Part shown: in pieces, positions 1-32,912 of the stretch
How the letters are laid out: each line of letters opens with the position of its first letter
Position numbering within the stretch: the stretch's first letter is position 1
Assembly: GCA_019057375.1 (NCBI GenBank)
Contig: DXJF01000114.1
Coordinates: 32,001-96,000 of the forward strand
DNA: 64,000 nt
From: Candidatus Heimdallarchaeota archaeon
GTDB lineage: Archaea; Asgardarchaeota; Heimdallarchaeia; Heimdallarchaeales; Heimdallarchaeaceae
Reading direction: 5' to 3'
Notes under the pieces: generated by a model
Told to the model about the DNA's origin: nothing
The model's input: the letters and a program-made list of their open reading frames with translations, nothing else
Databases searched by the model: none
Position numbers and translations under genes: made by a program

Positions 1-1
1 C

Positions 2-523
2 TTCCCAAGACTTAATGTGTCCGATATGGATTACTCTCTTCAACCATCTTAGAGCTTCAAGTTGAGAAGAGATATCGGGTATGTCAAATAGATTCCATAG
101 TCTATCAGTAAGACGAATTAAAGAGAGATTCTCAATTAACTCTCCACGAGACAAAGCACCTTGGAGATTTGAGTTATATGCACAGATCGCAATTGGAAGA
201 CTTTTTGTTTCAGAATCCCAAGCTATCTTTTCCCAGAAATAGTTTCTTTCGTGTTTTATCATTTCTTCTTTGGTTGCATCAATAAGATATAACAACCCTT
301 CAAATGGAGTAAATTGCTTATGTTTGAATTTGAACCCTAAAGAATACGGTAATTCAGTTAGAGAACTATCTATTATGAATTCTGAGAGAGATGTATTAGA
401 CCTCATCAGTAGAGTTCTGTTTCTAGTTGCTGGAGTATCATCACCCAAAATTAGTATAGATACTTCTGGGTAGCCTAGTTTTCTTCGAAGAGAACTTTTC
501 AGATTCTGAATAAGGTTAGTCAT
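2..523 (-). CDS. Degenerate Arf/Arl-like small GTPase-fold protein (3' end runs off the window)
   Basis: Not in the ORF track; translated by hand from the ATG at 523: MTNLIQNLKSSLRRKLGYPEVSILILGDDTPATRN...FEGLLYLIDATKEEM...LPIAICAYNSNLQGALSRGELIENLSLIRLTDRLWNLF...LEALRWLKR. This aligns by eye to Arf ([51 protein letters not shown]; GLDWL). Confidence 0.6.
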   Translation of the reverse strand, partial: MTNLIQNLKSSLRRKLGYPEVSILILGDDTPATRNRTLLMRSNTSLSEFIIDSSLTELPYSLGFKFKHKQFTPFEGLLYLIDATKEEMIKHERNYFWEKIAWDSETKSLPIAICAYNSNLQGALSRGELIENLSLIRLTDRLWNLFDIPDISSQLEALRWLKRVIHIGHIKSWE

Positions 524-629
524 TGGGTTTCGTTAAAAAGCAACTTATGTGCATCTTTATCAATTTTTTGAATAAGAAGTTTTTAGAATAAGAGTAAAAG
601 TTTAGAACTTCAATAAAAATGAAATAGTA

Positions 630-1124
630 ATGAGTCAAAAAATCCTAAACATAGTTGTCGCAGGTATTGAGCACAATAACAAGTGGTTGTTTATCAAACG
701 TGAAAGAGGAGATTATCAGAAGAAATGGGCTTTAGCAGGGGGGAAAATGCATTTTGATGAAACAATAAAAGAATCAATTTTAAGAGAAATTAAAGAAGAA
801 ACGGGTTTAGAAGTAGAGTGGGTAGGAATTAAATCCATCCTAAATGAAAAACTCAAAGAGAAAGATTCTGGAGAAACAACACAACATTTCATTATTATTT
901 TATGTTTAACAAAAGCAAAGAGTGATGATGTCATAAAAACAGAAGAAGGAGAATTATGCTGGTTCACTGAACAAAAAATCAGAGATAATAAAGATAAGAT
1001 CATCCCCTCCGATTATCATATGATAACAAATTTGATTATGAAAGAATCATTAAACCAGATTGTTGAAGTGGAACTATTAAAAAAAGAAGATGAATTATCT
1101 CTTGGTTTATTTGAAGAATATTAA
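630..1124 (+). CDS. NUDIX hydrolase
   Basis: Nudix box GGKMHFDETIKESILREIKEETGL. Confidence 0.9.
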   Translation: MSQKILNIVVAGIEHNNKWLFIKRERGDYQKKWALAGGKMHFDETIKESILREIKEETGLEVEWVGIKSILNEKLKEKDSGETTQHFIIILCLTKAKSDDVIKTEEGELCWFTEQKIRDNKDKIIPSDYHMITNLIMKESLNQIVEVELLKKEDELSLGLFEEY

Positions 1125-2074
1125 TTAATTATTTTCTCAAATTCCTTTGAACTTATTTTAGAACCACTTAAAACAAGAACTACTTCTCGTCCTTGAAATT
1201 TCTCAATCTTTTGGATGAATGATGCAACAGACAATACCGCAGCGCCCTCAACTATCAGTTTGTGTTCTTTGAAAAGCAACCTTAATGCGTTTTTAATTTC
1301 CTCTTCTGAAACCATAATGTACTCATCTACATATTTTTTGCAAAAATCGAAAGTAATAGAATCGGGTTCGATCCCTCCAGCAGTTCCATCAGATAATGTA
1401 GGTTTTGATTCGTAATCTATTATTCTTCCTGCTTTAATTGATTCATACATTACTGGAGAATTAATTGGTTGGCACCCAATGATTTCAACTTCCCCAAATT
1501 TACTCTTCAAATAGCTTGCAATGCCTGAAATCAAACCTCCTCCTCCGATGGGAATTAAAACAAAATCTGGTTTCCTTAATTGTTTCTCTAATTCCATTCC
1601 TATAGTCCCTTGTCCCGCTATGATTTTCAAATCGTTATAGGGAGAGATAAACTCTATCATGTTTTTCTTAGCATATTCACGTGCAAATGTTTCTGTTTCA
1701 ACACAATCATTTCCGTAAAGTTCTATCTTTACATTCTGCTCTTCTAATGCTTTAATCTTAGTTTGGGATGCATTTTTAGGTAGAAATATTATTCCTTTCA
1801 ATCCCAAAATATCAATTCCATGAGCGAATGCTGCTCCATGGTTTCCAGATGAAGCAGTTATGAACTCACCTTTACTTTCTGTAGTACAAAGGAAGATCAG
1901 ACTATTCATAGCTCCTCTTATCTTAAAAGAACCAGTTACCTGTTGATTCTCTAATTTGAGATATACTTTGCAATTTCCCATTCTACTTAGAACTGGAGAG
2001 AACTCTAAGGAGGTCTCTTTAATATATGGTCTAATCCTCTCTTCAGCTTCTTGAATTTCTCTAAGTATATCCAT
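1121..2074 (-). CDS. ilvA: Threonine/serine ammonia-lyase (PLP, fold type II)
   Basis: KLENQQVTGSFKIRGA (PLP lysine), TASSGNHG, PIGGGGLISG; no C-terminal regulatory domain. Confidence 0.85.
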   Translation of the reverse strand: MDILREIQEAEERIRPYIKETSLEFSPVLSRMGNCKVYLKLENQQVTGSFKIRGAMNSLIFLCTTESKGEFITASSGNHGAAFAHGIDILGLKGIIFLPKNASQTKIKALEEQNVKIELYGNDCVETETFAREYAKKNMIEFISPYNDLKIIAGQGTIGMELEKQLRKPDFVLIPIGGGGLISGIASYLKSKFGEVEIIGCQPINSPVMYESIKAGRIIDYESKPTLSDGTAGGIEPDSITFDFCKKYVDEYIMVSEEEIKNALRLLFKEHKLIVEGAAVLSVASFIQKIEKFQGREVVLVLSGSKISSKEFEKIIN

Positions 2075-2283
2075 TTGTTTCTAAAAGATAATCTCCGATT
2101 TCTATATAAACTTTAAATCTAATCTTCTGATTCTCAATCATCATCTTTTTTGGGGTAAATCTGAAGAGAATTAGTCAAGGAAACTAAAACCAAATATTTT
2201 GGAAATATCATTACAAGTAAAGATTTAAACACCTTCTAGATTTTTCGAGAAAAGGTTTTTACTGAAAAACGAAATGATATACT

Positions 2284-3354
2284 ATGGCAACTAGTTCTTC
2301 TAATGTTTTAAATGAAGGTATTATTACCACTAGAAAAGAAAAAAAAGCGGTACAAAACAAAGCTTCTAGATATCTTTCCATTGATGTTTTCAGAGGTCTA
2401 GCAATAGTCGCAATGATTTTTGTTAATGTGATAGCTCCTTTCAATAAAGTCCCAGCATGGTCAAAGCACGCACTTGATTATGGCTTAACCTATGTTGATC
2501 TAGTTACTCCTTTCTTTATCTTTGCAATCGGCTTAACTTACACAATGTCTTTTAATCGCTATTTCGAAAAAAATGGTTGGTTTCAAACATTTCTAAGATT
2601 CTTACGAAGGTATGCAGCATTTTATGGCATGGGGATGATAGGAGCTATGTACTTCTTCACAGATAAAGGAATAGTTTTTTCTTGGGGGGTTCTACAAGCT
2701 ATAGGATTAGCAGGTAGTTTCACCTTATTCTTTCTAAAGTTTCCAAGAAGTGTGAGATTTGCGGTTGGTATTGGTTTATTAGTTGCATATCAATATATTT
2801 TGACTATACCTGTAGAAGTAGGTATAGATACTATATCCTTAGCTGATCTAAATTTAGATGATGTTCATGGTGGAATAATTGGAGGTATTGGTTTCTGTAT
2901 TCTACTGCTTTTATGTACAGCAATAATTGATGACTTTCGTAAAACAAACAAATGGTGGATTCTGGGTTGTGGGGGAATTTTTACTACAGCAGGAATTATT
3001 TTACATTTTGTTTGGAAATTAACAGGTTGGCCGTTATACGGGGGAATCTCCAAAGAGAGGGTCACCGCATCATATATCCTCCTCACAGTTGGATTAGGTT
3101 CAATTCTTTTCTGGTTGTTATGGTTTATCTATGATAAAAAACAGATTACGAAGAACAGAAGCATTTTACAACCAATTGGGAGAAATTCATTTTTTATCTA
3201 TATAATTCACCCCATAATGATTATGTTAACACAATTAATCTTACCAATCGACACCCACTTTGCACTTGTAATGTTTCTAGGAATAGTTAGTGTGGTTATT
3301 TTGTGGACTGTATCGTTCTTTCTTGATAAGAAGAAAATCTACATAATAATATGA
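2284..3354 (+). CDS. Multi-pass membrane acyltransferase, HGSNAT/NagX-like
   Basis: RYLSIDVFRGLAIVAMIFVN, DLVTPFFIFAIG, WGVLQAIG and IGRNSFFIYIIH motifs; about 10 hydrophobic segments. Confidence 0.75.
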   Translation: MATSSSNVLNEGIITTRKEKKAVQNKASRYLSIDVFRGLAIVAMIFVNVIAPFNKVPAWSKHALDYGLTYVDLVTPFFIFAIGLTYTMSFNRYFEKNGWFQTFLRFLRRYAAFYGMGMIGAMYFFTDKGIVFSWGVLQAIGLAGSFTLFFLKFPRSVRFAVGIGLLVAYQYILTIPVEVGIDTISLADLNLDDVHGGIIGGIGFCILLLLCTAIIDDFRKTNKWWILGCGGIFTTAGIILHFVWKLTGWPLYGGISKERVTASYILLTVGLGSILFWLLWFIYDKKQITKNRSILQPIGRNSFFIYIIHPIMIMLTQLILPIDTHFALVMFLGIVSVVILWTVSFFLDKKKIYIII

Positions 3355-3367
3355 TAAATGAGGTATA

Positions 3368-4285
3368 ATGATGAAAGTAGTAGAAGATATTACACAACTC
3401 ATTGGAGAAACTCCCTTAGTAAAACTAGGAAGGCTCTTTCCAAACTCTGAAATTTTTGGCAAATGCGAATTCATGAACCCTTTAAGTGTAAAGGATCGTC
3501 CTGTTCTGCAAATCTTTAGTGATGCTGAAGAACAAGGTTTGATTAAGCCAGGAGATACTGTGATTGAATGTACAAGTGGAAACACAGGAATGGCAGTTTC
3601 TTTGATTGCAGCCATAAAGAATTACAAAGCAATTTTAGTCATGTCAGAAATACAAAGTATTGAACGACGCCAAATTCTTAGTGCTTTGGGAGCTGAATTG
3701 ATTCTGACACCTGCGGAATTAGGGACTGAAGGGTCCCGACAGAAATTAAAGGAATTATTAGAAGAAAACCCTGATTACTTTTATATAGGACAGCATGTGA
3801 ATTCTTCAAACCCCAAAGCCCATTATCTATCAACTGGTCCTGAACTATGGGAACAAACAGAGGGAGAGATAGATATTCTAATTGCAGGATTAGGTACAGG
3901 AGGAACAATATGTGGTGCAGGTAAATACTTGAAGGAAAAAAATCCAAATGTACAATTGATTGCAGTAGAACCTTTTGAATCACCTTATATCTCTAAGGGA
4001 ATATTCAAACCCCACAAAATAATGGGCACAGCACCAGGATTTGTACCTGAAACACTTGACAAGGATATAATTGATGAGATATTTCTGGTTAAACAAGCTG
4101 ATGCTTTTGAGATGTGTAGAAAAATGGCATTAATAGAAGGTATTCTAATTGGAATAAGCTCAGGAGCAGTATGTGAGGCAGCAAAACAAATTTCGAAAAG
4201 AGTAGAGAATAAGAAAAAGAAAATTGTTGTTGTTTTAGCGGATACAGGACAAAGATACTTGAGCGTGGAAGGATTATTTGTTTGA
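3368..4285 (+). CDS. cysK: Cysteine synthase (O-acetylserine sulfhydrylase family)
   Basis: LIGETPLVKL, EFMNPLSVKDR, TSGNTG, GLGTGGT, DTGQRYLS. Confidence 0.9.
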   Translation: MMKVVEDITQLIGETPLVKLGRLFPNSEIFGKCEFMNPLSVKDRPVLQIFSDAEEQGLIKPGDTVIECTSGNTGMAVSLIAAIKNYKAILVMSEIQSIERRQILSALGAELILTPAELGTEGSRQKLKELLEENPDYFYIGQHVNSSNPKAHYLSTGPELWEQTEGEIDILIAGLGTGGTICGAGKYLKEKNPNVQLIAVEPFESPYISKGIFKPHKIMGTAPGFVPETLDKDIIDEIFLVKQADAFEMCRKMALIEGILIGISSGAVCEAAKQISKRVENKKKKIVVVLADTGQRYLSVEGLFV

Positions 4286-4298
4286 TTTAAAAGAGGAG

Positions 4299-4321
4299 TG
4301 GTGGGGCAGGGCGGATTCGAA
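4299..4321 (-). pseudogene. 3' fragment (T-loop to CCA) of a tRNA-Val(GAC) gene
   Basis: Reverse complement reads TTCGAAT CCGCC CTGCCCC A CCA. The acceptor strand is identical to that of tRNA-Val at 6335-6443. The T-stem strand CCGCC differs from that copy but pairs with GGCG of the 5' fragment at 8655-8708. Confidence 0.85.
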
Positions 4322-4360
4322 TAGACTCCTTTAAAATGAGGGAAAGGAAGAGTTTTAAGA

Positions 4361-6328
4361 TTGAACGGTAAAATGTACGAGATGAAAGAGCAAAGAATTC
4401 TAGTATTTATTCTGGTATTCTATCTTACTTTAAATGTAAATATAATTAAAGCCAATAGAACTGATACTTTTCTCTTAACAACCACAAACACCTCTATTCA
4501 GGATAATAAAGCATCAACAGTAAGTCAAACCAGTTCATTGTTCATAGATGATGACTCTGATTTCATCACACTTAACTTCCCTGGAAGTGGAACAAAAGGT
4601 GACCCCTACTTAATTGAAAACTATCAAATCATCACCACTGGTAGAGAAGCAGGTATTGATATTCAGAATACAAGTAAACATTTCATTATTAGAAATTGTA
4701 CTATTGAAACTGACAGTTGGGGTATTCGACTAAATGAAATAGCTCCTAATACAGCATCAATCATTGATAATGAGTTCATAGATAATGATTATACAGCTAT
4801 ATCCATCTACAATTCAATTGGAGTTACAATTTCCAATAATAAATTCAAAAATAATGACGAAGCATTATACTTAAGGAAATCTAGTTTCTTAACTATATCT
4901 AACAATACGTTTGAAGAGAATTGGCATGGTTTGCTCACATCTGGAACTGATTCATTAATTATAGAAGACAACTTTTTCTATTCAAATGTAATTGCAATAA
5001 GCATTACAGCAGTTACTGGTTTTTGTATCAAAAATAATGTTTTTAAAAATAATTCCAGATACGGAATGAATCTATATGCAACAGACAACACACTGGTTTC
5101 GAATAATACATGCAGTGATAGTGGATGGCGAGGAATCCTAGTTCGTCAGTCGATGTTTGTTGTTTTAAACCATAACACTCTTACTAATGATGGTATCCAC
5201 ATTGATTATTACTCGGTAGAATATGGAAGTTTTTCAAATAATCAAGTCAATTCTAGAATTCTTGGATTTTTCAAAAATAAGAATGACTTAGAACTAAAAG
5301 ACCCAATTTATGGTCAGTTAATTTTGTCAGACTGTAAAAAGGGAACCATTTCTAATCAAAATCTCTCAAACACAAGCATTGGTATAACATTGTACAATTG
5401 TGAGAAGACCACCATAATAAATAGTACTTGTAACAATAATGACGGTGATGGAATCCAAATTCATAATTCTGATGGATGTTCAGTGAGTAATAACACTTGC
5501 AATAATAATGATAATGGGATCAGTGTTGTAAACTCAAATCATTGTAATGTATCGAATAATATCTTACTTGGGAATTGGGAGAGCATAGAATTAACAAAAT
5601 CTAACTCAGCAGAAATTAATCTAAACAAATGTTCATTTAACAAAAACCATGGAATAACAATAATAAATTCCGAATATGGATTTGTAACTAATAACAATTG
5701 TTCAGATAATCATAACGATGGAATTCGAATACTAAGTTCAAATTATTTCGTGATTGCTAACAACTCGTGTATAAATAACAGAGAGGAGGCAATTTACTTA
5801 ATAACAACTATTGTTTCTATTGTTTACAATAATCTCTGCAAAAATAACACAAACGGGATATACATCGGACATTCAGGATTTAGTCCTATTCCTGAATTTG
5901 TACCCCCACCTCCAGATTCATATTCGGAAGTAATTTCTAATCATCTTGAAGAAAATAGTAAATATGGAGTTTATCTTAATCGACTGACTCAGGATAACAG
6001 CATACATCATAATTCCTTCATTAATAATGGTGAGGAAGGAATAGCACAAGCTTATGACACAGGATATAGAAATACTTGGTTTGATAAGAAGACAAATGAA
6101 GGTAATTTTTGGTCTGATATGGGGACCGGATCTTATGAAATTGCAGGAGAAGCAAATTCAATCGACAAATATCCGCTAATGGAACCCAAAATGATAGAAA
6201 TGCCGGAAATTCCATCAAATTGGCCAACTTACAGAACTAAATCTAATCCACAAATAATATGCATAGGAATAGTGACATTAGTTATTCTGAAACGTAGAAA
6301 ATTAAGATTTAAAAGAAGAAAAATCTAA
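4361..6328 (+). CDS. Secreted/surface right-handed parallel beta-helix (NosD/CASH-repeat) protein with C-terminal membrane anchor
   Basis: N-terminal hydrophobic signal; GSGTKGDPYLIENY; many IxxNxxxNNxxGI repeats; GNFWSD motif; C-terminal hydrophobic stretch followed by KRRK. Confidence 0.85.
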   Translation: MNGKMYEMKEQRILVFILVFYLTLNVNIIKANRTDTFLLTTTNTSIQDNKASTVSQTSSLFIDDDSDFITLNFPGSGTKGDPYLIENYQIITTGREAGIDIQNTSKHFIIRNCTIETDSWGIRLNEIAPNTASIIDNEFIDNDYTAISIYNSIGVTISNNKFKNNDEALYLRKSSFLTISNNTFEENWHGLLTSGTDSLIIEDNFFYSNVIAISITAVTGFCIKNNVFKNNSRYGMNLYATDNTLVSNNTCSDSGWRGILVRQSMFVVLNHNTLTNDGIHIDYYSVEYGSFSNNQVNSRILGFFKNKNDLELKDPIYGQLILSDCKKGTISNQNLSNTSIGITLYNCEKTTIINSTCNNNDGDGIQIHNSDGCSVSNNTCNNNDNGISVVNSNHCNVSNNILLGNWESIELTKSNSAEINLNKCSFNKNHGITIINSEYGFVTNNNCSDNHNDGIRILSSNYFVIANNSCINNREEAIYLITTIVSIVYNNLCKNNTNGIYIGHSGFSPIPEFVPPPPDSYSEVISNHLEENSKYGVYLNRLTQDNSIHHNSFINNGEEGIAQAYDTGYRNTWFDKKTNEGNFWSDMGTGSYEIAGEANSIDKYPLMEPKMIEMPEIPSNWPTYRTKSNPQIICIGIVTLVILKRRKLRFKRRKI

Positions 6329-6334
6329 AGAGTA

Positions 6335-6443
6335 TGGTGGGGCAGGCAAGATTCGAACTTGCGACTTCCTCCACTTTTTGTCTGTAGGTTTTCCACCTTG
6401 CAGATGTCAAGGAGGTATCATAGCCAAGCTAGATCACTGCCCC
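6335..6443 (-). tRNA. tRNA-Val(GAC) with 31-nt anticodon-loop intron, CCA encoded
   Basis: Acceptor GGGGCAG/CTGCCCC, anticodon stem CCTCC/GGAGG with TT-GAC, T-arm GCAAG-TTCGAAT-CTTGC. The intron (6375-6405, +/-1 nt) forms a hairpin with a relaxed BHB-like motif. Confidence 0.92.
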
Positions 6444-6477
6444 TTTTGCCGATAAGCTTTTCGCCTACTTTTCTTTC

Positions 6478-6504
6478 CTTGTTTTCTTTAAATGTTTTTT
6501 GTTA
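6478..6504 (-). promoter_or_regulatory. Putative BRE/TATA promoter of tRNA-Val
   Basis: Minus strand reads TAACAAAAAACATTTAAAG, about 45 nt upstream of the tRNA; 26/27 identical to 8744-8770. Confidence 0.6.
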
Positions 6505-6641
6505 TCCAGCTCTTTTAGTCAAGTAGACAAATTCGCAGAAAACATGGACAAGCTAGCCATATCCTTTGCAAGAAGTATAAACAGACAACAGAGAGGAAAA
6601 ACCCATCATAACAGAAGATTTTATCGAGTTTAAAAACCATT

Positions 6642-8594
6642 TTGTGGATATTGTTACTGAGTGAATTGGTCACACAAGCAACAAGTAAAACTCAAACAAT
6701 TATGTCTCCCTCGTCAAAGGGAGTGATGAGAAGTTATCAGGTGGTGCTCAAGTGTATAGACCAATCCCAAAGAGAAGAGATTAACCAGAGAATAAAAACA
6801 TTAGAAGAACAACAAAATCAGCTACTCACCCCTCAAGTTGTCAAGCAAGCAGTAGAACTCTATAGAACCAATCCCAAAGAAGGATTTTTCACACGCCAAC
6901 TCTGCAAAAAAGTAGGGAAAAGTCCAAATATTGCAGAAAGTGCTTTCCACTGGTTATACATAGCTATCAAAGGAAAGATAGATAAGGAGAAGAAAGTGGA
7001 AGGGTTATTGAGCTTTCTTTTGAAAAATCCTCAACAGCTGATAGAATGGCTGATTTTTGGTCGTTCCCCTTATACTGAGCGAAGTTTAGAAAACTATTGG
7101 AGACTAAAAAGAAAATATATCATTAACCTCCTCACCAGTACTAGATCCAAAACTGATTCCTATTGGAGAAAAAAACACAAACACAACTATTTTGCTGACT
7201 TCCTACAATTCAACGACTCCCTTCCTTTTACGTCACAAACTGATATCCTCCAAGCTCTTGATGATGCGCTGTTTTACTACAATCATGAATTTTCTCTCAT
7301 CCCACAGCTTACCAAAAATCAGAAAGCATTTCTGAAAAAACTCCAACTCTTAAAGAAGGAACAAAAAACTGTAGTACCTTTTCTCACTTCATGGATCAAA
7401 GGTCCTCAAACTTCTCGATGGAAAAGTCTCAAAACTCTCTCCGAACAACTAGCTTCAATTATAGGCAAACCTTCTCGAAAACTCTTTTCAGTAGTTAGAC
7501 TGATAATTGTTTTCACACTCTTTGATCATTACATGCAGAGTGTCCCTCAGTTAGTTAAGGCTCTCCCTATTGCTAATGTTGTTCCCCTACCATTTAAACG
7601 AAAAAAGAAAGGAAGATTACCAATCAAATTGCTAATGAAGAAAAACTATGTTATCACCCGTCAAGGGAATGCTCAAGAATTGACTGATCAGGTAAAAAAA
7701 CAAGGATGGACGGAATTTTGTTTTCCGCAAAAGGGAAAACAGCGACTAACAGCTCAAGTTCACTTTCCTAAAAAAGTAATAGGGTATATTGGAAATGGTG
7801 CACACTTCAAAGTCTTCCAAGTAAGTAGTGGACAAGCTCCTAGTTTCAAACCTAGGGTGGATGTGGTACTCGAAGGAGCTCATGCTTGCTTCCATTCATC
7901 CAAACTTCTTCACCGTTATCTTGCTAATGTTTCTGCAAAGAAAGCTTCTATTCTTGGAGTAGATATTAACCGCTTAGGACAGTATATGGTCGTGTTTAAC
8001 ACCCCTATCCCTCTGCCTCCAGATTTACTAAACTTAGCAGCACACTATAAACATCTCAGCACAAAAGTTCTGGATGAGTTGAACACAGGTTTTCTCCGTA
8101 AAAGAAAAGAGTATGATTCCCACGGGTGTTGTAAACTTAAAGGTGAACTTGACCGTGTTTATACTCGTCGCAGCCGCATCCTTCGCGAAATCACTTATCT
8201 CCTCCCCCACTTTCTTGCTGCAGTAATGGTGAAAAAGAAGTGTAAAGTGTTAAAGATTGAACGTTTAACTGTTGATCCTACCGGCACCAGAGGAGCTTTA
8301 GCTAAAGCTATTTACACCATGCCCGATAGTTTGTTCATTTACAAAAAAGCAGTGTGGTTAGCTTCTTTGGAGTTAGGGTATGATGTGCAGTTAGAAGCAG
8401 TTCACCCATATCATACCAGCACCATTCATTACGGATGTGGAGGTCTTCTTACTCGTCAAAAAGGTCAGTATGATGTTGCTCCTTGTAAAAAGTGTGGTCA
8501 AAAGGTCCCTACTCATGCTAATGCTGCCAAAAATATTGCTTCCCTTCAAGGTATCTTTCTTCCTCCCGATTCCTTCCCCTCAACGCACGTGTAG
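6642..8594 (+). CDS. tnpB: Large TnpB-like (IS200/IS605 OrfB, Cas12f-like) RNA-guided RuvC protein; likely start ATG 6702
   Basis: RuvC-I ILGVDINR, RuvC-II VLKIERL, VHPYHTSTIHYGCG...CKKCG zinc finger, RuvC-III region THANAAKNIA (Asp position is His). Confidence 0.85.
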   Translation: MWILLLSELVTQATSKTQTIMSPSSKGVMRSYQVVLKCIDQSQREEINQRIKTLEEQQNQLLTPQVVKQAVELYRTNPKEGFFTRQLCKKVGKSPNIAESAFHWLYIAIKGKIDKEKKVEGLLSFLLKNPQQLIEWLIFGRSPYTERSLENYWRLKRKYIINLLTSTRSKTDSYWRKKHKHNYFADFLQFNDSLPFTSQTDILQALDDALFYYNHEFSLIPQLTKNQKAFLKKLQLLKKEQKTVVPFLTSWIKGPQTSRWKSLKTLSEQLASIIGKPSRKLFSVVRLIIVFTLFDHYMQSVPQLVKALPIANVVPLPFKRKKKGRLPIKLLMKKNYVITRQGNAQELTDQVKKQGWTEFCFPQKGKQRLTAQVHFPKKVIGYIGNGAHFKVFQVSSGQAPSFKPRVDVVLEGAHACFHSSKLLHRYLANVSAKKASILGVDINRLGQYMVVFNTPIPLPPDLLNLAAHYKHLSTKVLDELNTGFLRKRKEYDSHGCCKLKGELDRVYTRRSRILREITYLLPHFLAAVMVKKKCKVLKIERLTVDPTGTRGALAKAIYTMPDSLFIYKKAVWLASLELGYDVQLEAVHPYHTSTIHYGCGGLLTRQKGQYDVAPCKKCGQKVPTHANAAKNIASLQGIFLPPDSFPSTHV

Positions 8595-8674
8595 GGGACC
8601 CATTCAAACGACGGTTAAATAGCCTCTGCAAGTTTAACCAAGTTTCATAACGTGCGCCGACTTCCTCCACGTCA
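8560..8674 (+). ncRNA. Candidate omega/reRNA of the TnpB-like gene (scaffold plus ~20-nt guide; 5' boundary unknown)
   Basis: Hairpins CCCCT(8576-80)/AGGGG(8593-97) and GGTTAAA/TTTAACC. The loop CGCACGT (8584-90) is complementary to ACGTGCG (8650-56), a pseudoknot next to the putative guide. Confidence 0.5.
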
Positions 8675-8708
8675 AGGAGGTATCATAGCCAGGCTAGATC
8701 ACTGCCCC
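8655..8708 (-). pseudogene. 5' fragment (acceptor to T-stem 5' strand) of an intron-less tRNA-Val(GAC) gene
   Basis: Reverse complement GGGGCAGTGATCTAGCCTGGCTATGATACCTCCTTGACGTGGAGGAAGTCGGCG, then unrelated sequence. Nearly identical to the exons of 6335-6443 but has no intron. Confidence 0.88.
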
Positions 8709-8743
8709 CTTTTATTGATAGGTCTTTCTTCGTTCTCTTCTTT

Positions 8744-8770
8744 CTTGTTTTCTTTAAATATTTTTTGTTA
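8744..8770 (-). promoter_or_regulatory. Duplicated tRNA-Val BRE/TATA promoter
   Basis: 26/27 identity to 6478-6504 and the same spacing (~45 nt) to the tRNA 5' end. Confidence 0.6.
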
Positions 8771-9057
8771 CAAATCTATGTTTCACCAATATTTGATATT
8801 TCTCTCTTTTTGGTTCATTAAAATCTTCTTTTTTTTCATTCTAATTATTAATTTGGTTTCTTCTAATTTGCTCGTTTTCTTTAATATTTCCCCCTTAAGA
8901 TACCATTTTGTCAAACTTTCGTTTTTTTCCGACTCAAAATCATATTCCAATCCTTGTTTCTTTTTTCAATATCACTAGGTAACATTTATAAAAACTTCAG
9001 CAGACAATCTATCAAAGGAATAGTGTTAAACTATTCTGTCCACTCGAGTGATTTATT

Positions 9058-11673
9058 ATGGATAAAAGTGTAGCAATGTCTTTAAAAATCGTTGGTTTTC
9101 TCCTTATTCTTACTTCTGCCTGGGTACCTATATATACAATTACATTTGATTCTACAACAACTGAACCTGAACCAATTATTCTTGTTGGTTCTCAGAGCAT
9201 TACTGGAGTCCTTCATAATGTATATTACGAAAATAATCTAGCATTTGTAGTAGATTCAGATACAGGGTTAAATATTGTAAATGTAACTGATGCAACAACA
9301 CCTGAGATTATTGGGACATACAATATTGCAAATGGGGCCAATGGTATATTCGTGAAGGATAACTATGCTTACATTGCAGATACGGTCACAGGATTACAGA
9401 TTGTTAATATTACTGACCCTACTTCACCAACACAAGTTGGTACATATAGTATTACAGGAGGGGCCACTGATGTATTTGTATCAGGAAATTATACTTACAT
9501 TGTAGATTCAACAATAGGGTTTCAAATACTAAATATTAGTGACCCAACAACACCAACACAAGAGGGTGTATTTAGTATTTCAGGGGAAATAAACAGTTTA
9601 ATTGTAAAAGATGAATTCGCATATATTGTAGATTCAGTAACTGGTTTACGTATTCTAAATATTACTGACGCAACTTTACCAAGCTTGGTTGCAACCTTCG
9701 ATGTAAACGAACCAGTATATGATGTAGCTGTTTTAGGAAGTTATGCTTACATTGTTGGTGAAAATATTGGCATACAAGTAGTAAATATAAGTAATCCTCA
9801 ATCTCCCGTTCTCACTAGTTCTTATTATATTGAAGGAAATGTCAATGGAATACATATTGAAAATGAACATGCATATATTGTTGATTCGACTGTTGGAATA
9901 CAAATTGTTTCAATTATAAATCCAGAAGAATTAACTATTGTAGGCTCACAGGAAATTACAGGAGAGATATATGGAATATTCGTAAAAGATGGATATGCAT
10001 ATGTTGTAGGATCAGATCTAGAAATCTTTATAGTAAGACCCAGATCTGAGTATGATTCATCAGGTACACTAGTACGAATCTTCGGTTTCAAAATCGATTA
10101 TAAAATGTTAACTTACAGTAGTGCAAACAACCTCGCTCAAGAACGATTCTTGGAAGCAGAAACACCCAGTAGTGTTGTTATTCTTGCTGCAGCTTTGTGG
10201 TTTATACTAATCTTTGCTACAGCTGCTGTTGTTTTGGGTCAGGTTTTTCAAAGTGGTGGTTTCAAATCGAGGGGCACTATTGCAGATATTGCTGCAGGAA
10301 TTCTTTTACTTTTGGCTCTGGTAGTTGCTATTTTATCAATGAGCAGATCAATGATTATAGCAGCAGAAAGATACCAAGCTTTAGTAACGGGACAAACTGC
10401 AGCCTCAACGGTGCCTCTTACGTTTAACCCGAATGATTCTACACCAGCTTACTTTGACATTGGTTTAACAGGTTCAGTTGGACCAGGATTCTACATATTC
10501 ACCATTGGAATATTAATGATGGTAACTGGTATCTTTCTACCAGTCAATTGGCAACAACCAACCAGCTCCAAAATGTCAAGAAGAATTGGTGATACTGGTG
10601 TTCTTAGATGGGTTAAAAACATAGCATCATTAAGATTAACTACTTATGTTACTAGAAGATTATTAACACTTATTCCTCTCTTCATTGCAATATGTGTGAT
10701 GACATTTGTAATGGTAAACGGAATGGGTGACCCAGTTGCATTATTGCTACTTGGAAAACAAAGAGTAACGGAACAAGATAGGATAAATCTTACTAAAAAA
10801 CTTGGTCTAGATCAGCCCATTTATATTCAATTCGTTACTTGGTTCTATAACCTTATACGAGGGGACATGGGTATAAGTTTCCAATCAGGTCAATCAATTA
10901 ATAATATGATTGGTGGATTAATTTGGGAAACTTTAAAGCTTCAGTTAGCATCATTTGTGCTAGCTTTGCTTATTTCGATACCTTTGGGTGTTTTAGCAGC
11001 AAAGAATCAAAATACTTGGATTGACTCAGCTGCAAGTTCTTTCGCACTCTTAGGTCTCTCAATGCCAATTTTTGTGTTTGGTTTATTAATGATTTATATA
11101 TTCAGCGGATATGGTTTAGGATGGTTCCCAGCTGCAAAAGCTCACCGAATACCAGCGCCCACGCCTGTGTTTAGTCAGACGAACTGGCAATTATTCTGGT
11201 CAGGGCAGTGGGGAGGTGTTGGTGGATTTTGGAATAATGTAGGTGTAAGATTAGGGGATTCACTCCTTCATATGGCTTTACCAACTATAACTTTGACATT
11301 TGCTTTCTTAGCCCTATATACTAGGTTAGTTAGGGCAACAATGCTTGAAGTTCTTAGACAAGATTATGTCTTATCTGCAAGAGCAAATGGAATATCTGAA
11401 AGAACCATTACATGGAGACATGCATTCAGAAATGTTTTGATCCCTGTAGTAACCTATGTTGGGTTGTTTATGGCTACAGCTTTAGCTGGAGCTCCAATTA
11501 CTGAAACACTCTTCACATGGCCGGGTTTAGGATTCAAATATGTAGGTGCGGTGCTTCTTTTGGACTTCCCGATGGTCTTAGGTACGACGGCGATTCTGAC
11601 TTTACTTATCTTACTAGGTAACTTGATAACAGATATTGCTTATGTTGCGGTAGATCCGCGTATAGAACTATGA
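9058..11673 (+). CDS. dppB: Peptide/nickel ABC permease (DppB/OppB) fused to an N-terminal LVIVD-repeat beta-propeller
   Basis: About seven 42-aa repeats (AYIVDSxxGLxIVNITDPxxP); C-terminal RRLLTLIPL, GLDQPIYIQF, QDYVLSARANG (EAA loop) and DPRIEL. Confidence 0.85.
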   Translation: MDKSVAMSLKIVGFLLILTSAWVPIYTITFDSTTTEPEPIILVGSQSITGVLHNVYYENNLAFVVDSDTGLNIVNVTDATTPEIIGTYNIANGANGIFVKDNYAYIADTVTGLQIVNITDPTSPTQVGTYSITGGATDVFVSGNYTYIVDSTIGFQILNISDPTTPTQEGVFSISGEINSLIVKDEFAYIVDSVTGLRILNITDATLPSLVATFDVNEPVYDVAVLGSYAYIVGENIGIQVVNISNPQSPVLTSSYYIEGNVNGIHIENEHAYIVDSTVGIQIVSIINPEELTIVGSQEITGEIYGIFVKDGYAYVVGSDLEIFIVRPRSEYDSSGTLVRIFGFKIDYKMLTYSSANNLAQERFLEAETPSSVVILAAALWFILIFATAAVVLGQVFQSGGFKSRGTIADIAAGILLLLALVVAILSMSRSMIIAAERYQALVTGQTAASTVPLTFNPNDSTPAYFDIGLTGSVGPGFYIFTIGILMMVTGIFLPVNWQQPTSSKMSRRIGDTGVLRWVKNIASLRLTTYVTRRLLTLIPLFIAICVMTFVMVNGMGDPVALLLLGKQRVTEQDRINLTKKLGLDQPIYIQFVTWFYNLIRGDMGISFQSGQSINNMIGGLIWETLKLQLASFVLALLISIPLGVLAAKNQNTWIDSAASSFALLGLSMPIFVFGLLMIYIFSGYGLGWFPAAKAHRIPAPTPVFSQTNWQLFWSGQWGGVGGFWNNVGVRLGDSLLHMALPTITLTFAFLALYTRLVRATMLEVLRQDYVLSARANGISERTITWRHAFRNVLIPVVTYVGLFMATALAGAPITETLFTWPGLGFKYVGAVLLLDFPMVLGTTAILTLLILLGNLITDIAYVAVDPRIEL

Positions 11674-11690
11674 TAAACAGGTGATATGAG

Positions 11691-12968
11691 TTGCAAAAAG
11701 CTAAGAAAACACAAAAAGGGTCTTTTTCTAAAAGACTTGATAATTACTTAGTGGAAAAAAGGTTACCAAGATCTATGTCTTGGGCTGGAGCACTCGCTGT
11801 GCTCTGGCAGCACTACTACCTTAACTATATCATACAATTCTTAGGGATTATCTTAATATTTGGAATTGGATTACCATATGGTCTTAGAGCATTCGGAGTT
11901 TCCATGAGTGTAGACGGTGTTCGACTAGGACCAATTGGATCTCCATTCGCATATCTTATCTATATAGGAATCGTAGCATTAGTATGGGTTGGTGTAAAGG
12001 TAGGTTGGAGATATTACCAGAAGGTAACTGGTAAGAAAGAAATGATTATTGCAAAAGATGGAACTCTTCGAGAAAGAAGTCCTTCTCAATGGACACTTGT
12101 TTGGAGAAGATATAAGAAAAACAAAGTTGCAGTCTTATCTGCTACTCTCGTAGTTGGAATCACAATTCTGGCAATTACTTATCCAATCTTGATGCCCTTT
12201 AGCCCTGTAGGAACTTCCCCCCTGTTTGATGCATGGAATGGAGGTGGTTCTTTAGCTAATCCAAATCTAAAGTATCCTGGAGGAACAGATATTCTTGGAA
12301 GAGATGAATTCTCAAGGTTACTTGCTGGTAGTGAAGTTTCCTTAACTGTAGGATTATTCTCAACTGTGATGTCTGTTCTAATAGGAGTAACATTAGGTGC
12401 CCTTGCTGGATACTATAGAGGATGGACTGAAGAAATTATTATGAGAATTACAGACATGTTTCTCGCTCTACCATTTCTTGTAATAGCAATTCTAGCAGTT
12501 TCATTCATCAGAAGAGGAAGATTAGTTTTTTTGAGACGGATACCACAATCAATAGTTATTATTATTGTACTAGGAATATTTGGTTGGGCAGGACTATGTA
12601 GGTTAGTCACAGCTAACACGAAGCAGATTTACAACTTAGATTATGTAAATGCTGCAAGAGTATTAGGAGCAAGTAATCGGAGAATCATTTTAGTCCATAT
12701 ACTACCGAATATTTTAGCTCCTATCATTGTTATTGCCACAATATCCATTGCAGGAGGAATTCTCTCAGAAGCAGGATTAACCTTTTTAGGTTTAGGAAGT
12801 CCAACAACGATTTCTTGGGGACAGATGGTTAATGAAGCACAAACGGTTCTTAAAACGAACCCAGAATTAGCGCTTCTACCAGGATTCGCAATATTCTTTG
12901 TAGTACTGGCATTCAACTTGCTAGGAGACGCATTAAGAGATGCGCTAGATCCAAGATTAAGAGAGTGA
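11691..12968 (+). CDS. dppC: Peptide ABC permease DppC/OppC
   Basis: GTDILGRDEFSRL, DYVNAARVLGAS, HILPN, FNLLGDALRDALDPR. Confidence 0.9.
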   Translation: MQKAKKTQKGSFSKRLDNYLVEKRLPRSMSWAGALAVLWQHYYLNYIIQFLGIILIFGIGLPYGLRAFGVSMSVDGVRLGPIGSPFAYLIYIGIVALVWVGVKVGWRYYQKVTGKKEMIIAKDGTLRERSPSQWTLVWRRYKKNKVAVLSATLVVGITILAITYPILMPFSPVGTSPLFDAWNGGGSLANPNLKYPGGTDILGRDEFSRLLAGSEVSLTVGLFSTVMSVLIGVTLGALAGYYRGWTEEIIMRITDMFLALPFLVIAILAVSFIRRGRLVFLRRIPQSIVIIIVLGIFGWAGLCRLVTANTKQIYNLDYVNAARVLGASNRRIILVHILPNILAPIIVIATISIAGGILSEAGLTFLGLGSPTTISWGQMVNEAQTVLKTNPELALLPGFAIFFVVLAFNLLGDALRDALDPRLRE

Positions 12969-32789: not shown

Positions 32790-32912
32790 TTAGCGGAAAA
32801 CCATTTGACCGTTATAAAATTCAAATTTCTTCTGCTCTGCTTTATTCTCTAAGGTATACTTCCAATCCTTCTCAACTTTCTCCATTCTTGCTTTAGTCTT
32901 ATTTTCATTCAT
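32790..32912 (-). CDS. 40-aa small ORF with strong RBS (not in ORF track)
   Basis: AGGTGATAGATA-ATG; translates to MNENKTKARMEKVEKDWKYTLENKAEQKKFEFYNGQMVFR. Confidence 0.4.
   Translation of the reverse strand: MNENKTKARMEKVEKDWKYTLENKAEQKKFEFYNGQMVFR

Follow-up and report, generated by a model that had tools for sequence, protein, structure and literature searches.

Introduction

The locus reported here has its closest precedent in the tRNA-Thr(GGU) locus of Caldiarchaeum subterraneum, in which a 5' tRNA fragment and a full tRNA gene with an acquired intron lie on either side of a multicopy mobile sequence (Sugahara et al. 2012, PMC3293823). Population variants at that locus include an uninterrupted form, and the authors proposed that recombination scatters tRNA fragments and adds introns; the Caldiarchaeum element supplies only the 5' part of the tRNA (positions 1-27) and was read as being of the integrase/att type (PMC3293823). 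Here we describe a tRNA-Val(GAC) gene that is broken by a 4,333-bp insertion in a 64,000-nucleotide stretch of a Candidatus Heimdallarchaeota genome (assembly GCA_019057375.1, contig DXJF01000114.1, positions 32,001 to 96,000 of the forward strand; hereafter the window, whose numbering is used throughout). In contrast to the Caldiarchaeum case, a whole tRNA gene with its promoter is carried by the inserted DNA, both the 5' and the 3' relics of the resident gene are kept, and the mobile part is a TnpB insertion sequence (IS). With a probability of roughly 0.6, we favour an account in which one over-long insertion of this IS, anchored at its right end, carried a tRNA locus with it and survived through replacement of the broken gene, leaving the relics, with later loss of the IS.

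Other described systems resemble the locus in part. SSV1- and pNOB8-type integrative elements duplicate the 3' end of a tRNA gene and restore the gene; the locus shares with them a tRNA gene target (T-loop or anticodon loop), a short 3' relic and function kept by element-borne sequence, but it has no integrase and no exact att repeat, and it holds a separate complete gene in place of a restored one, so that by none of the criteria for tRNA-integrating elements does the cassette belong to that class. In the split and tri-split tRNAs of Nanoarchaeum, Caldivirga and Staphylothermus (PMC3218864) the halves likewise lie apart, with breaks where archaeal introns occur, whereas here there is no complementary leader and trailer, one base is missing and an intact gene is present. 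The mobile part is best compared with TnpB-only elements of the IS200/IS605 type (IS1341-like) and the IS607 type (ISDra2, ISFba1; PMC11061315), with which it shares its multicopy state, a TnpB-like protein with RuvC motifs and a zinc ribbon, a structured and conserved right end, a short specific target and a right flank that would serve as guide. In contrast to canonical IS200/IS605 elements, its protein has 630 amino acids (aa) with the RuvC-III Asp changed to His, it has ragged left ends, and its target duplications range from -5 to +11 nucleotides (nt); relative to both types, no Y1 TnpA was found in the genome, no serine recombinase is adjacent, and the copy at this locus drags 2.2 kb of extra DNA. 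Multiple copies and a conserved right end with variable flanks thus place it with IS200/IS605, whereas the absence of target duplication and the precise ends that define that group do not describe it.

Results

The source genome (G000) is a metagenome-assembled genome (MAG) of 3.47 Mb in 159 contigs, 89% complete and with 5% contamination, and it was compared with 25 congeners (genomes, contigs and loci are given below by G, C and L numbers). The broken gene comprises the following features:

4299-4321, minus strand: 3' relic of the resident tRNA-Val(GAC), positions 54-76 including CCA, with the same sequence as the 3' end of the uninterrupted G013 and G009 genes
4322-8654, unstranded: insertion of 4,333 bp by comparison with the empty congener sites, the flanks being adjacent in G013, G009 and G018
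8656-8708, minus strand: 5' relic of the resident tRNA-Val(GAC), positions 1-51/52, intron-less, identical to the G013 and G009 gene

On the minus strand, the 3' relic reads TTCGAAT-CCGCC-CTGCCCC-A-CCA, both directly and by alignment, and the 5' relic (8708-8655) reads GGGGCAG TG ATCT AGCCTGGCT ATGAT A CCTCC TTGACGT GGAGG AAGTC GGCG, its final GGCG being tRNA positions 49-52. The two pieces are the ends of one intron-less tRNA-Val(GAC), now relics, as a sequence-only reading of the window had proposed from their base pairing; its coordinates and pairing were borne out by direct reading, by alignment and by the congener gene. Base 8655 (c) also fits the last base of the right-end consensus of the IS, ...CATAACGTGC, and probably belongs to the IS, so that the 5' piece may stop at position 51 rather than 52 and one or two nucleotides (G53, perhaps G52) were lost. 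Since the breakpoints, 51/52 and 54, are complementary to within these 1-2 nt, they indicate a single insertion into a single gene, and since both relics are still identical to the G013 and G009 gene, the event is recent.

Orthologues of the locus were located with the right-flank LVIVD/permease gene (9058-11673) as anchor, and the DNA upstream of it was then aligned. The empty site with one contiguous intron-less gene, which the sequence-only reading had suggested looking for in relatives, is present: in G013, G009 and G018 the flanks abut (94-96% identity), and the contiguous tRNA is the one piece, a C and the other piece. Window 1-4321 corresponds to G013 locus L013 6431-10750 at 93.8%, and window 8655-11704 to L013 10752-13801 at 95.6%; one nucleotide lies between the two flanks in G013, and a contiguous intron-less tRNA-Val(GAC) of 78 nt spans their join. 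The empty site reads ATTCGAA-C-CGCCGACTT, where the window has ATTCGAA|TAGACTCC at the left junction, GATTCGAA|TAGACTCC in full, and CATAACGTG|CGCCGACTT at the right one. An uninterrupted intron-less tRNA-Val(GAC) occupies the same site in 13 congeners, four of them close (G013, G009, G018 and G011, with flanks ~94% identical) and nine further removed (G001, G020, G023, G016, G012, G005, G008, G017 and G002, with flanks ~65-75% identical). The flanks themselves are native and comprise:

3368-4285, plus strand: cysK-like pyridoxal-phosphate enzyme gene, native left flank (Pfam PALP, E 8.6e-67), collinear with relatives to 4321
8709-8770, minus strand: promoter region of the resident tRNA, kept upstream of the 5' relic, inside the right flank 8655-11704 (95.6% versus G013)
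9058-11673, plus strand: gene for an LVIVD-repeat/ATP-binding cassette permease (dppB-like) fusion, native right flank (Pfam BPD_transp_1, LVIVD), with orthologues 93-96% identical in G013, G018, G009 and G011

We considered whether the pieces might be a functional split tRNA, transcribed separately and trans-spliced as in Nanoarchaeum or Caldivirga. That the pieces are undecayed and identical to the gene of relatives, and that the 5' piece retains its promoter, would suit such a tRNA; G53 is absent, however, an intact gene with the same anticodon lies between the pieces, and four relatives with ~94% identical flanks are unsplit, so that the split is recent. Trans-splicing was rejected on the predicted duplex of trailer and leader: the sequence that trails the 5' piece (the IS end read antisense) pairs with that ahead of the 3' piece at -32.2 kcal/mol, no better than the shuffled controls (mean -32.5 kcal/mol), and a working split tRNA is accordingly most improbable.

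Within the insertion, the left-hand 2.2 kb holds the following features:

4361-6328, plus strand: cargo gene for a 655-aa right-handed beta-helix (NosD-like repeat) protein (Pfam NosD 9e-44, Beta_helix 1e-42)
6335-6443, minus strand: intact replacement tRNA-Val(GAC), T-stem GCAAG/CTTGC, with CCA (Rfam tRNA 49.3 bits; ARAGORN Val(gac) i(40,31))
6375-6405, minus strand: intron of 31 nt in the replacement tRNA, at the canonical position 37/38 (ARAGORN intron mode)
6444-6516, minus strand: upstream (promoter) region of the replacement tRNA, with a TATA-like TTTAAAG on the tRNA strand, assigned by similarity to the resident promoter

ARAGORN in its default mode missed this intron-bearing gene, and intron mode was required. 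A whole-genome scan found one intact tRNA-Val gene each for the anticodons GAC, CAC and TAC; the cassette copy is the only Val(GAC) gene and so must be functional, and, judged from this gene content, the carried tRNA must supply all Val(GAC) decoding. The replacement tRNA folds as a cloverleaf, and its minimum free energy fold shows the intron as a hairpin, the canonical bulge-helix-bulge motif at which it would be spliced being putative. The intron is identical in the sister MAG G024, absent from all 13 empty-site alleles, and without a second copy elsewhere in the genome; introns are present in 16 of the 42 tRNA genes detected, so that an intron as such is not unusual in this organism. The T-stem of the replacement is likewise a natural allele, found in intron-less genes of G011 and G001. 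Its promoter is 85% identical to the resident one at 8709-8770 and 82-86% identical to those of G023 and G020, and ~85% identical to every sampled allele. With their promoters, the replacement and resident tRNAs form a direct repeat (6406-6504 and 8671-8770) at 85% identity, for which a long target duplication made in situ was rejected as the origin, since the two repeats share just 85% identity and the empty site is held by relatives whose flanks are 94% identical.

Much of the sequence-only reading stands at this point: the T-stem of the intact copy at 6335-6443 does differ from that of the pieces, the resident gene is broken rather than restored, with its 5' part abutting the right end of the IS, and the insert does bring a complete tRNA-Val with a promoter-like upstream region, which is the sole intact Val(GAC) gene of the genome. 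Its proposal of a unitary tRNA-replacing element does not hold, as the insert instead joins a 2.14-kb multicopy TnpB IS (~6517-8655) to 2.2 kb of apparently chromosomal DNA, and its comparison with integrase att sites is an analogy only, the insert having no integrase. Integration of the integrase type, with a site-specific recombinase that acted at the T-loop and left the 23-nt 3' piece as its att repeat, is very unlikely in our view. The 3' piece does begin exactly at T54, in the classic crossover zone of integrases, another tRNA has left a 23-nt relic, from T54 to CCA, at G000:C12, and G024 and G005 resemble a tRNA followed by cargo and a 3' repeat. Against this, Pfam searches with all open reading frames (ORFs) of 4322-8654 matched only the beta-helix and TnpB proteins, what adjoins the resident 5' part is the IS right end and no new 3' part, only 18 of 23 positions agree between the 3' relic and the replacement's 3' end, which form no exact att repeat, and the complementary breakpoints are those of one insertion into one gene.

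The left-hand DNA resembles an ordinary chromosomal locus. The beta-helix gene has 76% nucleotide identity to a gene that lies between cysK and tRNA-Val in G005, approximately the divergence of neighbouring core genes, and in G017 a beta-helix remnant abuts tRNA-Val with the same adjacency of stop codon and tRNA as in the window; the order of beta-helix gene beside tRNA-Val is native in these two congeners. On this evidence, we infer that the stretch 4322-6516 derives from the chromosome of a congener outside the sample, whose corresponding locus already had the IS ~73 nt upstream of the tRNA. No conserved left end was found at 4322, and the left boundary of a second cassette, at tRNA-Val(CAC), is unrelated in sequence. 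A candidate left end at 4322, AGAC-N10-TGAGGG, resembles the left end of the IS copy on C92 and nothing else, and G024 has TAAGGT there; the likeness may well be chance. At G005:C8 (L019 8030-11700), a 10-nt relic of a tRNA 3' end, TGGTGGGTGG, lies just past cysK; next come the beta-helix gene, a different antisense ORF of 405 aa, which may be another IS, and a full tRNA-Val(GAC), a layout that looks like an older, decayed event of the same kind with a breakpoint at ~65/66.

The right-hand part of the insertion comprises:

6517-8655, plus strand: TnpB-only insertion sequence of ~2.14 kb, one of seven genome copies (BLAST, filled/empty pairs)
6702-8594, plus strand: tnpB-like gene, 630 aa, with RuvC-I D, RuvC-II E, RuvC-III H (Asp to His) and a zinc ribbon
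8566-8655, plus strand: conserved right-end module with two hairpins, ending ...TTTCATAACGTGC, a candidate omega-RNA scaffold or transposition signal

BLAST of the window against its own 159-contig genome identified six further copies at 75-83% identity, on C92, C21, C144, C102 and C145 (two). All seven encode a TnpB-like protein of roughly 630 aa and share the right end ...TTTCATAACGTGC, and their flanks diverge right after ...CATAACGTGC. Three simple copies measure 2,078-2,140 bp by comparison of filled sites with the empty sites of close relatives, and the left end in the window (~6517, AGTCAAGTAGAC) resembles that of C92 (AGACCGTAGAC), is complete and abuts the replacement promoter in the manner of an ordinary insertion. 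By these comparisons, the insert is a composite, with 2.14 kb of IS on its right and 2.2 kb of carried DNA on its left. Columns of the right-end module are 92-99% conserved versus ~68% upstream of it, and the module has more than 170 matches in 22 of the 25 congeners. The resident 5' relic directly abuts this end, and its plus strand there is the predicted TnpB guide. An ~85-nt form of the module also ends a non-coding element of ~290 nt that has its own TATA-like box and no tnpB (G000:C65:8487-8569, C81:24656-24738, C40:60-142 and C124:13362-13440), and many more such tnpB-less modules occur at contig ends in G005, G008 and G022; these may be stand-alone omega-RNA-like genes or derivatives resembling miniature inverted-repeat transposable elements. 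At G001:C1:~52000 (L068), a copy of the right end lies only ~9 nt upstream of the 5' end of tRNA-Leu(CAG) in the same orientation, and may separate this gene from its promoter.

The encoded protein is a weak match to the TnpB family, Pfam Cas12f1-like_TNB giving E 9.6e-5 and 22.9 bits, under the 26.3-bit gathering cutoff, and its N-terminal ~330 aa match no family. The RuvC-I D (GVDINR), the RuvC-II E (KIERL) and the CxxC...CxxC ribbon are conserved across copies, and alignment with PDB 8hr5_A (3.9e-5) places NADYNAARNIA opposite PTHANAAKNIA, which sets His against the RuvC-III Asp. Some RNase-H-fold nucleases use an active-site His, and for this reason TnpB may still be active. In ISFba1 TnpB, the substitution D371A at the RuvC-III position is inactivating (PMC11061315).

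The insertion pattern of the family (G000 C92, C21, C102 and C145; G009:C89; G013:C89 and C88; G011:C133; L023-L028, L088-L091) was drawn from ten pairs of filled and empty sites: three in the source genome compared with relatives, five in relatives compared with the source genome, and the two tRNA-Val loci. The right end falls at (A/G)C(C/T)|G(T/C) in nine of the ten pairs, the tRNA-Val(GAC) target on the plus strand being GAACC|GCCGAC in the T-loop and T-stem. The left side is variable: the copies start at about positions 1, 5, 6, 9, 16, 32, 66 and 95 of the longest one, and apparent target duplications or deletions are -5, -2 (at the tRNA-Val(GAC) locus), 0, 2, 4, 5, 11, 11 and 11 nt. Although its flank is clean, the C21 copy lacks ~65 nt of the left end, which makes later deletion hard to invoke. 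A precise 3' end combined with a variable 5' end is not the behaviour of canonical IS200/IS605 elements, and it is possible that this TnpB family moves without a classical transposase, by a 3'-end-anchored process that truncates or over-runs at the 5' end; as left junctions are imprecise, an over-long copy would be the natural counterpart of the truncated ones. RNA-mediated (retro-type) mobility was considered for the ragged 5' ends and judged unlikely, as the tRNA of a cassette at G024:C26 is sense-oriented with its introns intact and the cassettes include promoters. Window position 32810 (G000:C65:64810) is itself an empty site, TTTGACC|GTTATAAAA, for the IS copy of G013:C88, which has a 4-nt duplication there.

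The arrangement of relic, cargo, replacement tRNA and IS is found at two further tRNA loci. On C145, a tRNA-Val(CAC) is split in the anticodon loop, its halves still pairing as CCACT/AGTGG, by an insert of 3,677 bp in the order 3' relic, 1.5 kb of cargo, full tRNA-Val(CAC) with promoter, IS and 5' relic; the empty site is seen in G009 and G013, and the cargo matched no Pfam family and no homologue in the genus. The mirror image is found for a tRNA(CAU) at G024:C26, where the 5' relic is followed by 420 nt of cargo, then by a full copy that is diverged and intron-bearing, then by the IS and, at the right end, by the 3' relic. In all, three of ~12 characterised insertions hit tRNA genes, which make up ~0.1% of the genome. 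A separate 23-nt relic of tRNA(CAU), from T54 to CCA, lies at a contig start in the source genome (G000:C12:184-206), where the full gene with two introns is at C5:5942-6204, and it points to an integrated element or a rearrangement; in G024, the IS hits the same tRNA(CAU) relic as in G000:C12 (TCCGCC|GTGCCCC).

G024, a second Candidatus Heimdallarchaeota MAG and an independent assembly, holds the cassette in an IS-less state on contig JAUWJS010000090.1 (C13). This contig matches window 3690-6504 at 94.6%, including the 3' relic, an identical left junction, the beta-helix gene and the intron-bearing tRNA, and both the IS and the 5' piece are absent from it. Its tRNA is resident-type from the D-loop outwards (agccaGgctag), and so is its promoter (identities 66/75 versus 57/78). 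The 5' relic and the carried tRNA are direct repeats at 85%, with a 21-nt identical stretch between intron and D-loop, and the G024 state was likely reached by homologous recombination between the two, deleting the IS; since the reverse path, with the G024 state first, needs an implausible insertion, G024 is the derived form. As judged from its sequence, the native tRNA locus would thereby have acquired an intron, a new T-stem and a 3' relic that mimics the scar of an integrase att site. G024 was the only carrier recovered in the genus search, and its contig the only match in a pattern scan of GTDB; metagenome scans for an intron-bearing Val(GAC) and for the junction of right end and tRNA gave no match.

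G024 also confirms the cassette in an independent assembly, and this bears on whether the window is a contig chimera joined across tRNA or IS repeats. The source is a MAG of 159 contigs with 5% contamination, and the region does contain repeats, but the left junction, the cargo and the intron-bearing tRNA recur in G024, the junctions lie outside shared k-mers, the IS copies are only 75-83% alike and the same layout stands on another contig (C145); an artefact is thus highly improbable.

Further recombinant alleles of tRNA-Val(GAC) are present in G018 and G011. In G011, the tRNA-Val combines a GCAAG/CTTGC T-stem with an otherwise resident-type context and is intron-less, and the cysK-like gene is absent from the locus (window 3398-4275 versus G011:C105). 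The empty-site gene of G018 (G018:C52:315-392, L003) is chimeric: its 5' strand is GGGGCAG, but the final ~12 nt, like the flank towards cysK, match the G005 type (CCACCCC), giving two acceptor-stem mismatches; it reflects either recombination between lineages within the tRNA or a chimera in that MAG.

Discussion

The favoured account may be set out as follows. A single insertion of 4,333 bp entered the T-arm of the intron-less tRNA-Val(GAC) between positions 51/52 and 54. The inserted DNA would consist of the TnpB-only IS together with 2.2 kb that formerly lay on its left at an earlier site, and that site would be the equivalent tRNA-Val locus of another, unsampled congener, so that the beta-helix gene, a complete tRNA-Val(GAC) with the other T-stem and a 31-nt intron, and its promoter were carried along. 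The right end would have been joined precisely and the left junction sloppily, as in a process that yields 5'-truncated or over-long copies. An insertion into a single-copy tRNA gene would be expected to survive only with a replacement aboard; the carried tRNA would then have taken over Val(GAC) decoding and the two pieces would be dead relics. If TnpB is active, its guide, the 5' relic, would fit the intact allele and not the replacement. Recombination between the 5' relic and the carried tRNA would later delete the IS and leave the intron-bearing tRNA on the native promoter, as in G024.

Several observations weigh against this account. The left junction GAA|TAGACTCC fits an over-run only loosely. 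At the junction with the carried promoter in the Val(CAC) cassette, the left end of the IS is ~95 nt short, and a truncated IS is thus required at that donor site. The presumed donor arrangement, with replacement tRNA, promoter, IS and a non-tRNA flank, was not found in the 25 congeners, the GTDB species representatives or the JGI metagenomes. All seven copies, intact or nearly so, have His for the RuvC-III Asp (motif NTH.NAA). No Y1 TnpA (PF01797) was found in the 89%-complete genome, in which control profiles did match, and none of the four serine recombinases with a Resolvase domain (C56, C127, C16 and C118) lies on or next to any of the ten tnpB homologues; one of these recombinases might still act in trans. 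Finally, that target and carried tRNA belong to one isoacceptor in the three cases would be explained only by selection, homology or guide targeting.

An alternative origin has two steps, in which the IS inserted alone and a foreign congener fragment with the beta-helix gene, tRNA and promoter was captured later at the left junction, one side being joined through recombination of IS copies and the other through microhomology. Simple insertions of the IS are common, the left junction shares only AA(T) of microhomology with the native region upstream of the beta-helix gene in G005 and G017, and recombination between lineages is evident at tRNA-Val(GAC), all of which would be compatible with capture. 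Such a path would, however, pass through an intermediate that lacks its only tRNA-Val(GAC) gene, and a rescuing gene would be free to land anywhere, yet at three loci it lies exactly between relic and IS; moreover, at 6517 the IS has a complete left end that meets the promoter like an ordinary insertion. We regard this sequence of events as rather unlikely.

A role for the nuclease itself is central to another explanation, which we hold to be unlikely while giving it some credence. In this natural form of cleave-and-rescue, TnpB and an omega-RNA with the 5' relic as guide would cut intact resident alleles in sister chromosomes or incoming DNA, and repair would copy the whole cassette between the relics; the cassette would be tolerated only by virtue of its cleavage-resistant tRNA, and it, rather than the IS alone, would be the selfish unit. 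In synthetic Cleave-and-Rescue (ClvR) gene drives, which are engineered, Cas9 is directed against an essential gene and linked to a recoded version of it that resists cleavage; here the putative nuclease is an RNA-guided TnpB and the drive is hypothetical, and it is likewise linked to a differently spelled copy. By construction, the guide equals the empty allele beside GAACC, which fits the target or target-adjacent motif (TAM) of the family. The replacement is mismatched at guide positions 1-2 and its intron breaks the match after position 15 (from 16), the Val(CAC) replacement differs throughout the guide region, the split-plus-replacement layout recurs at three tRNA loci, tRNA alleles have been shuffled among lineages at the locus (G011, G018 and G024), and the RNA module of the right end is strongly constrained. 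On the other hand, the change of the RuvC-III Asp to His in all copies keeps nuclease activity putative, the GCAAG/CTTGC T-stem is found in ordinary intron-less genes of G011 and G001 and so need not be an adaptation for escape, introns occur in 16 of 42 tRNA genes regardless, and identity of guide and empty site holds for any IS605-type insertion and is hence no evidence by itself.

Whether or not TnpB cleaves, the alleles are natural snapshots of one route, from the intact gene (G013, G009 and G018), through the gene split by a cassette that carries its replacement, to the locus from which the IS has been lost (G024). How the tRNA genes of archaea come to be split, broken up and rich in introns has long been asked. 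A 2026 census of Asgard archaea concluded that how tRNA introns arrive remains open (bioRxiv 10.64898/2026.10.13.758758), and the loss of the IS offers a concrete route to intron gain, as it leaves the native locus with an intron and a 3' relic. With its precise right end, ragged left ends, variable duplications and no identifiable transposase, the family is a misfit to the textbook picture of IS200/IS605, and TnpB elements can occupy single-copy, presumably essential tRNA genes when they bring a differently spelled copy, a pairing that may amount to a natural RNA-guided toxin and antidote. If cleave-and-rescue were true, the cassette would spread in polyploid or recombining Heimdall populations by destroying intact alleles, and turnover of tRNA alleles, gain of introns and fragmentation of tRNA genes in Asgard archaea would be its by-product.

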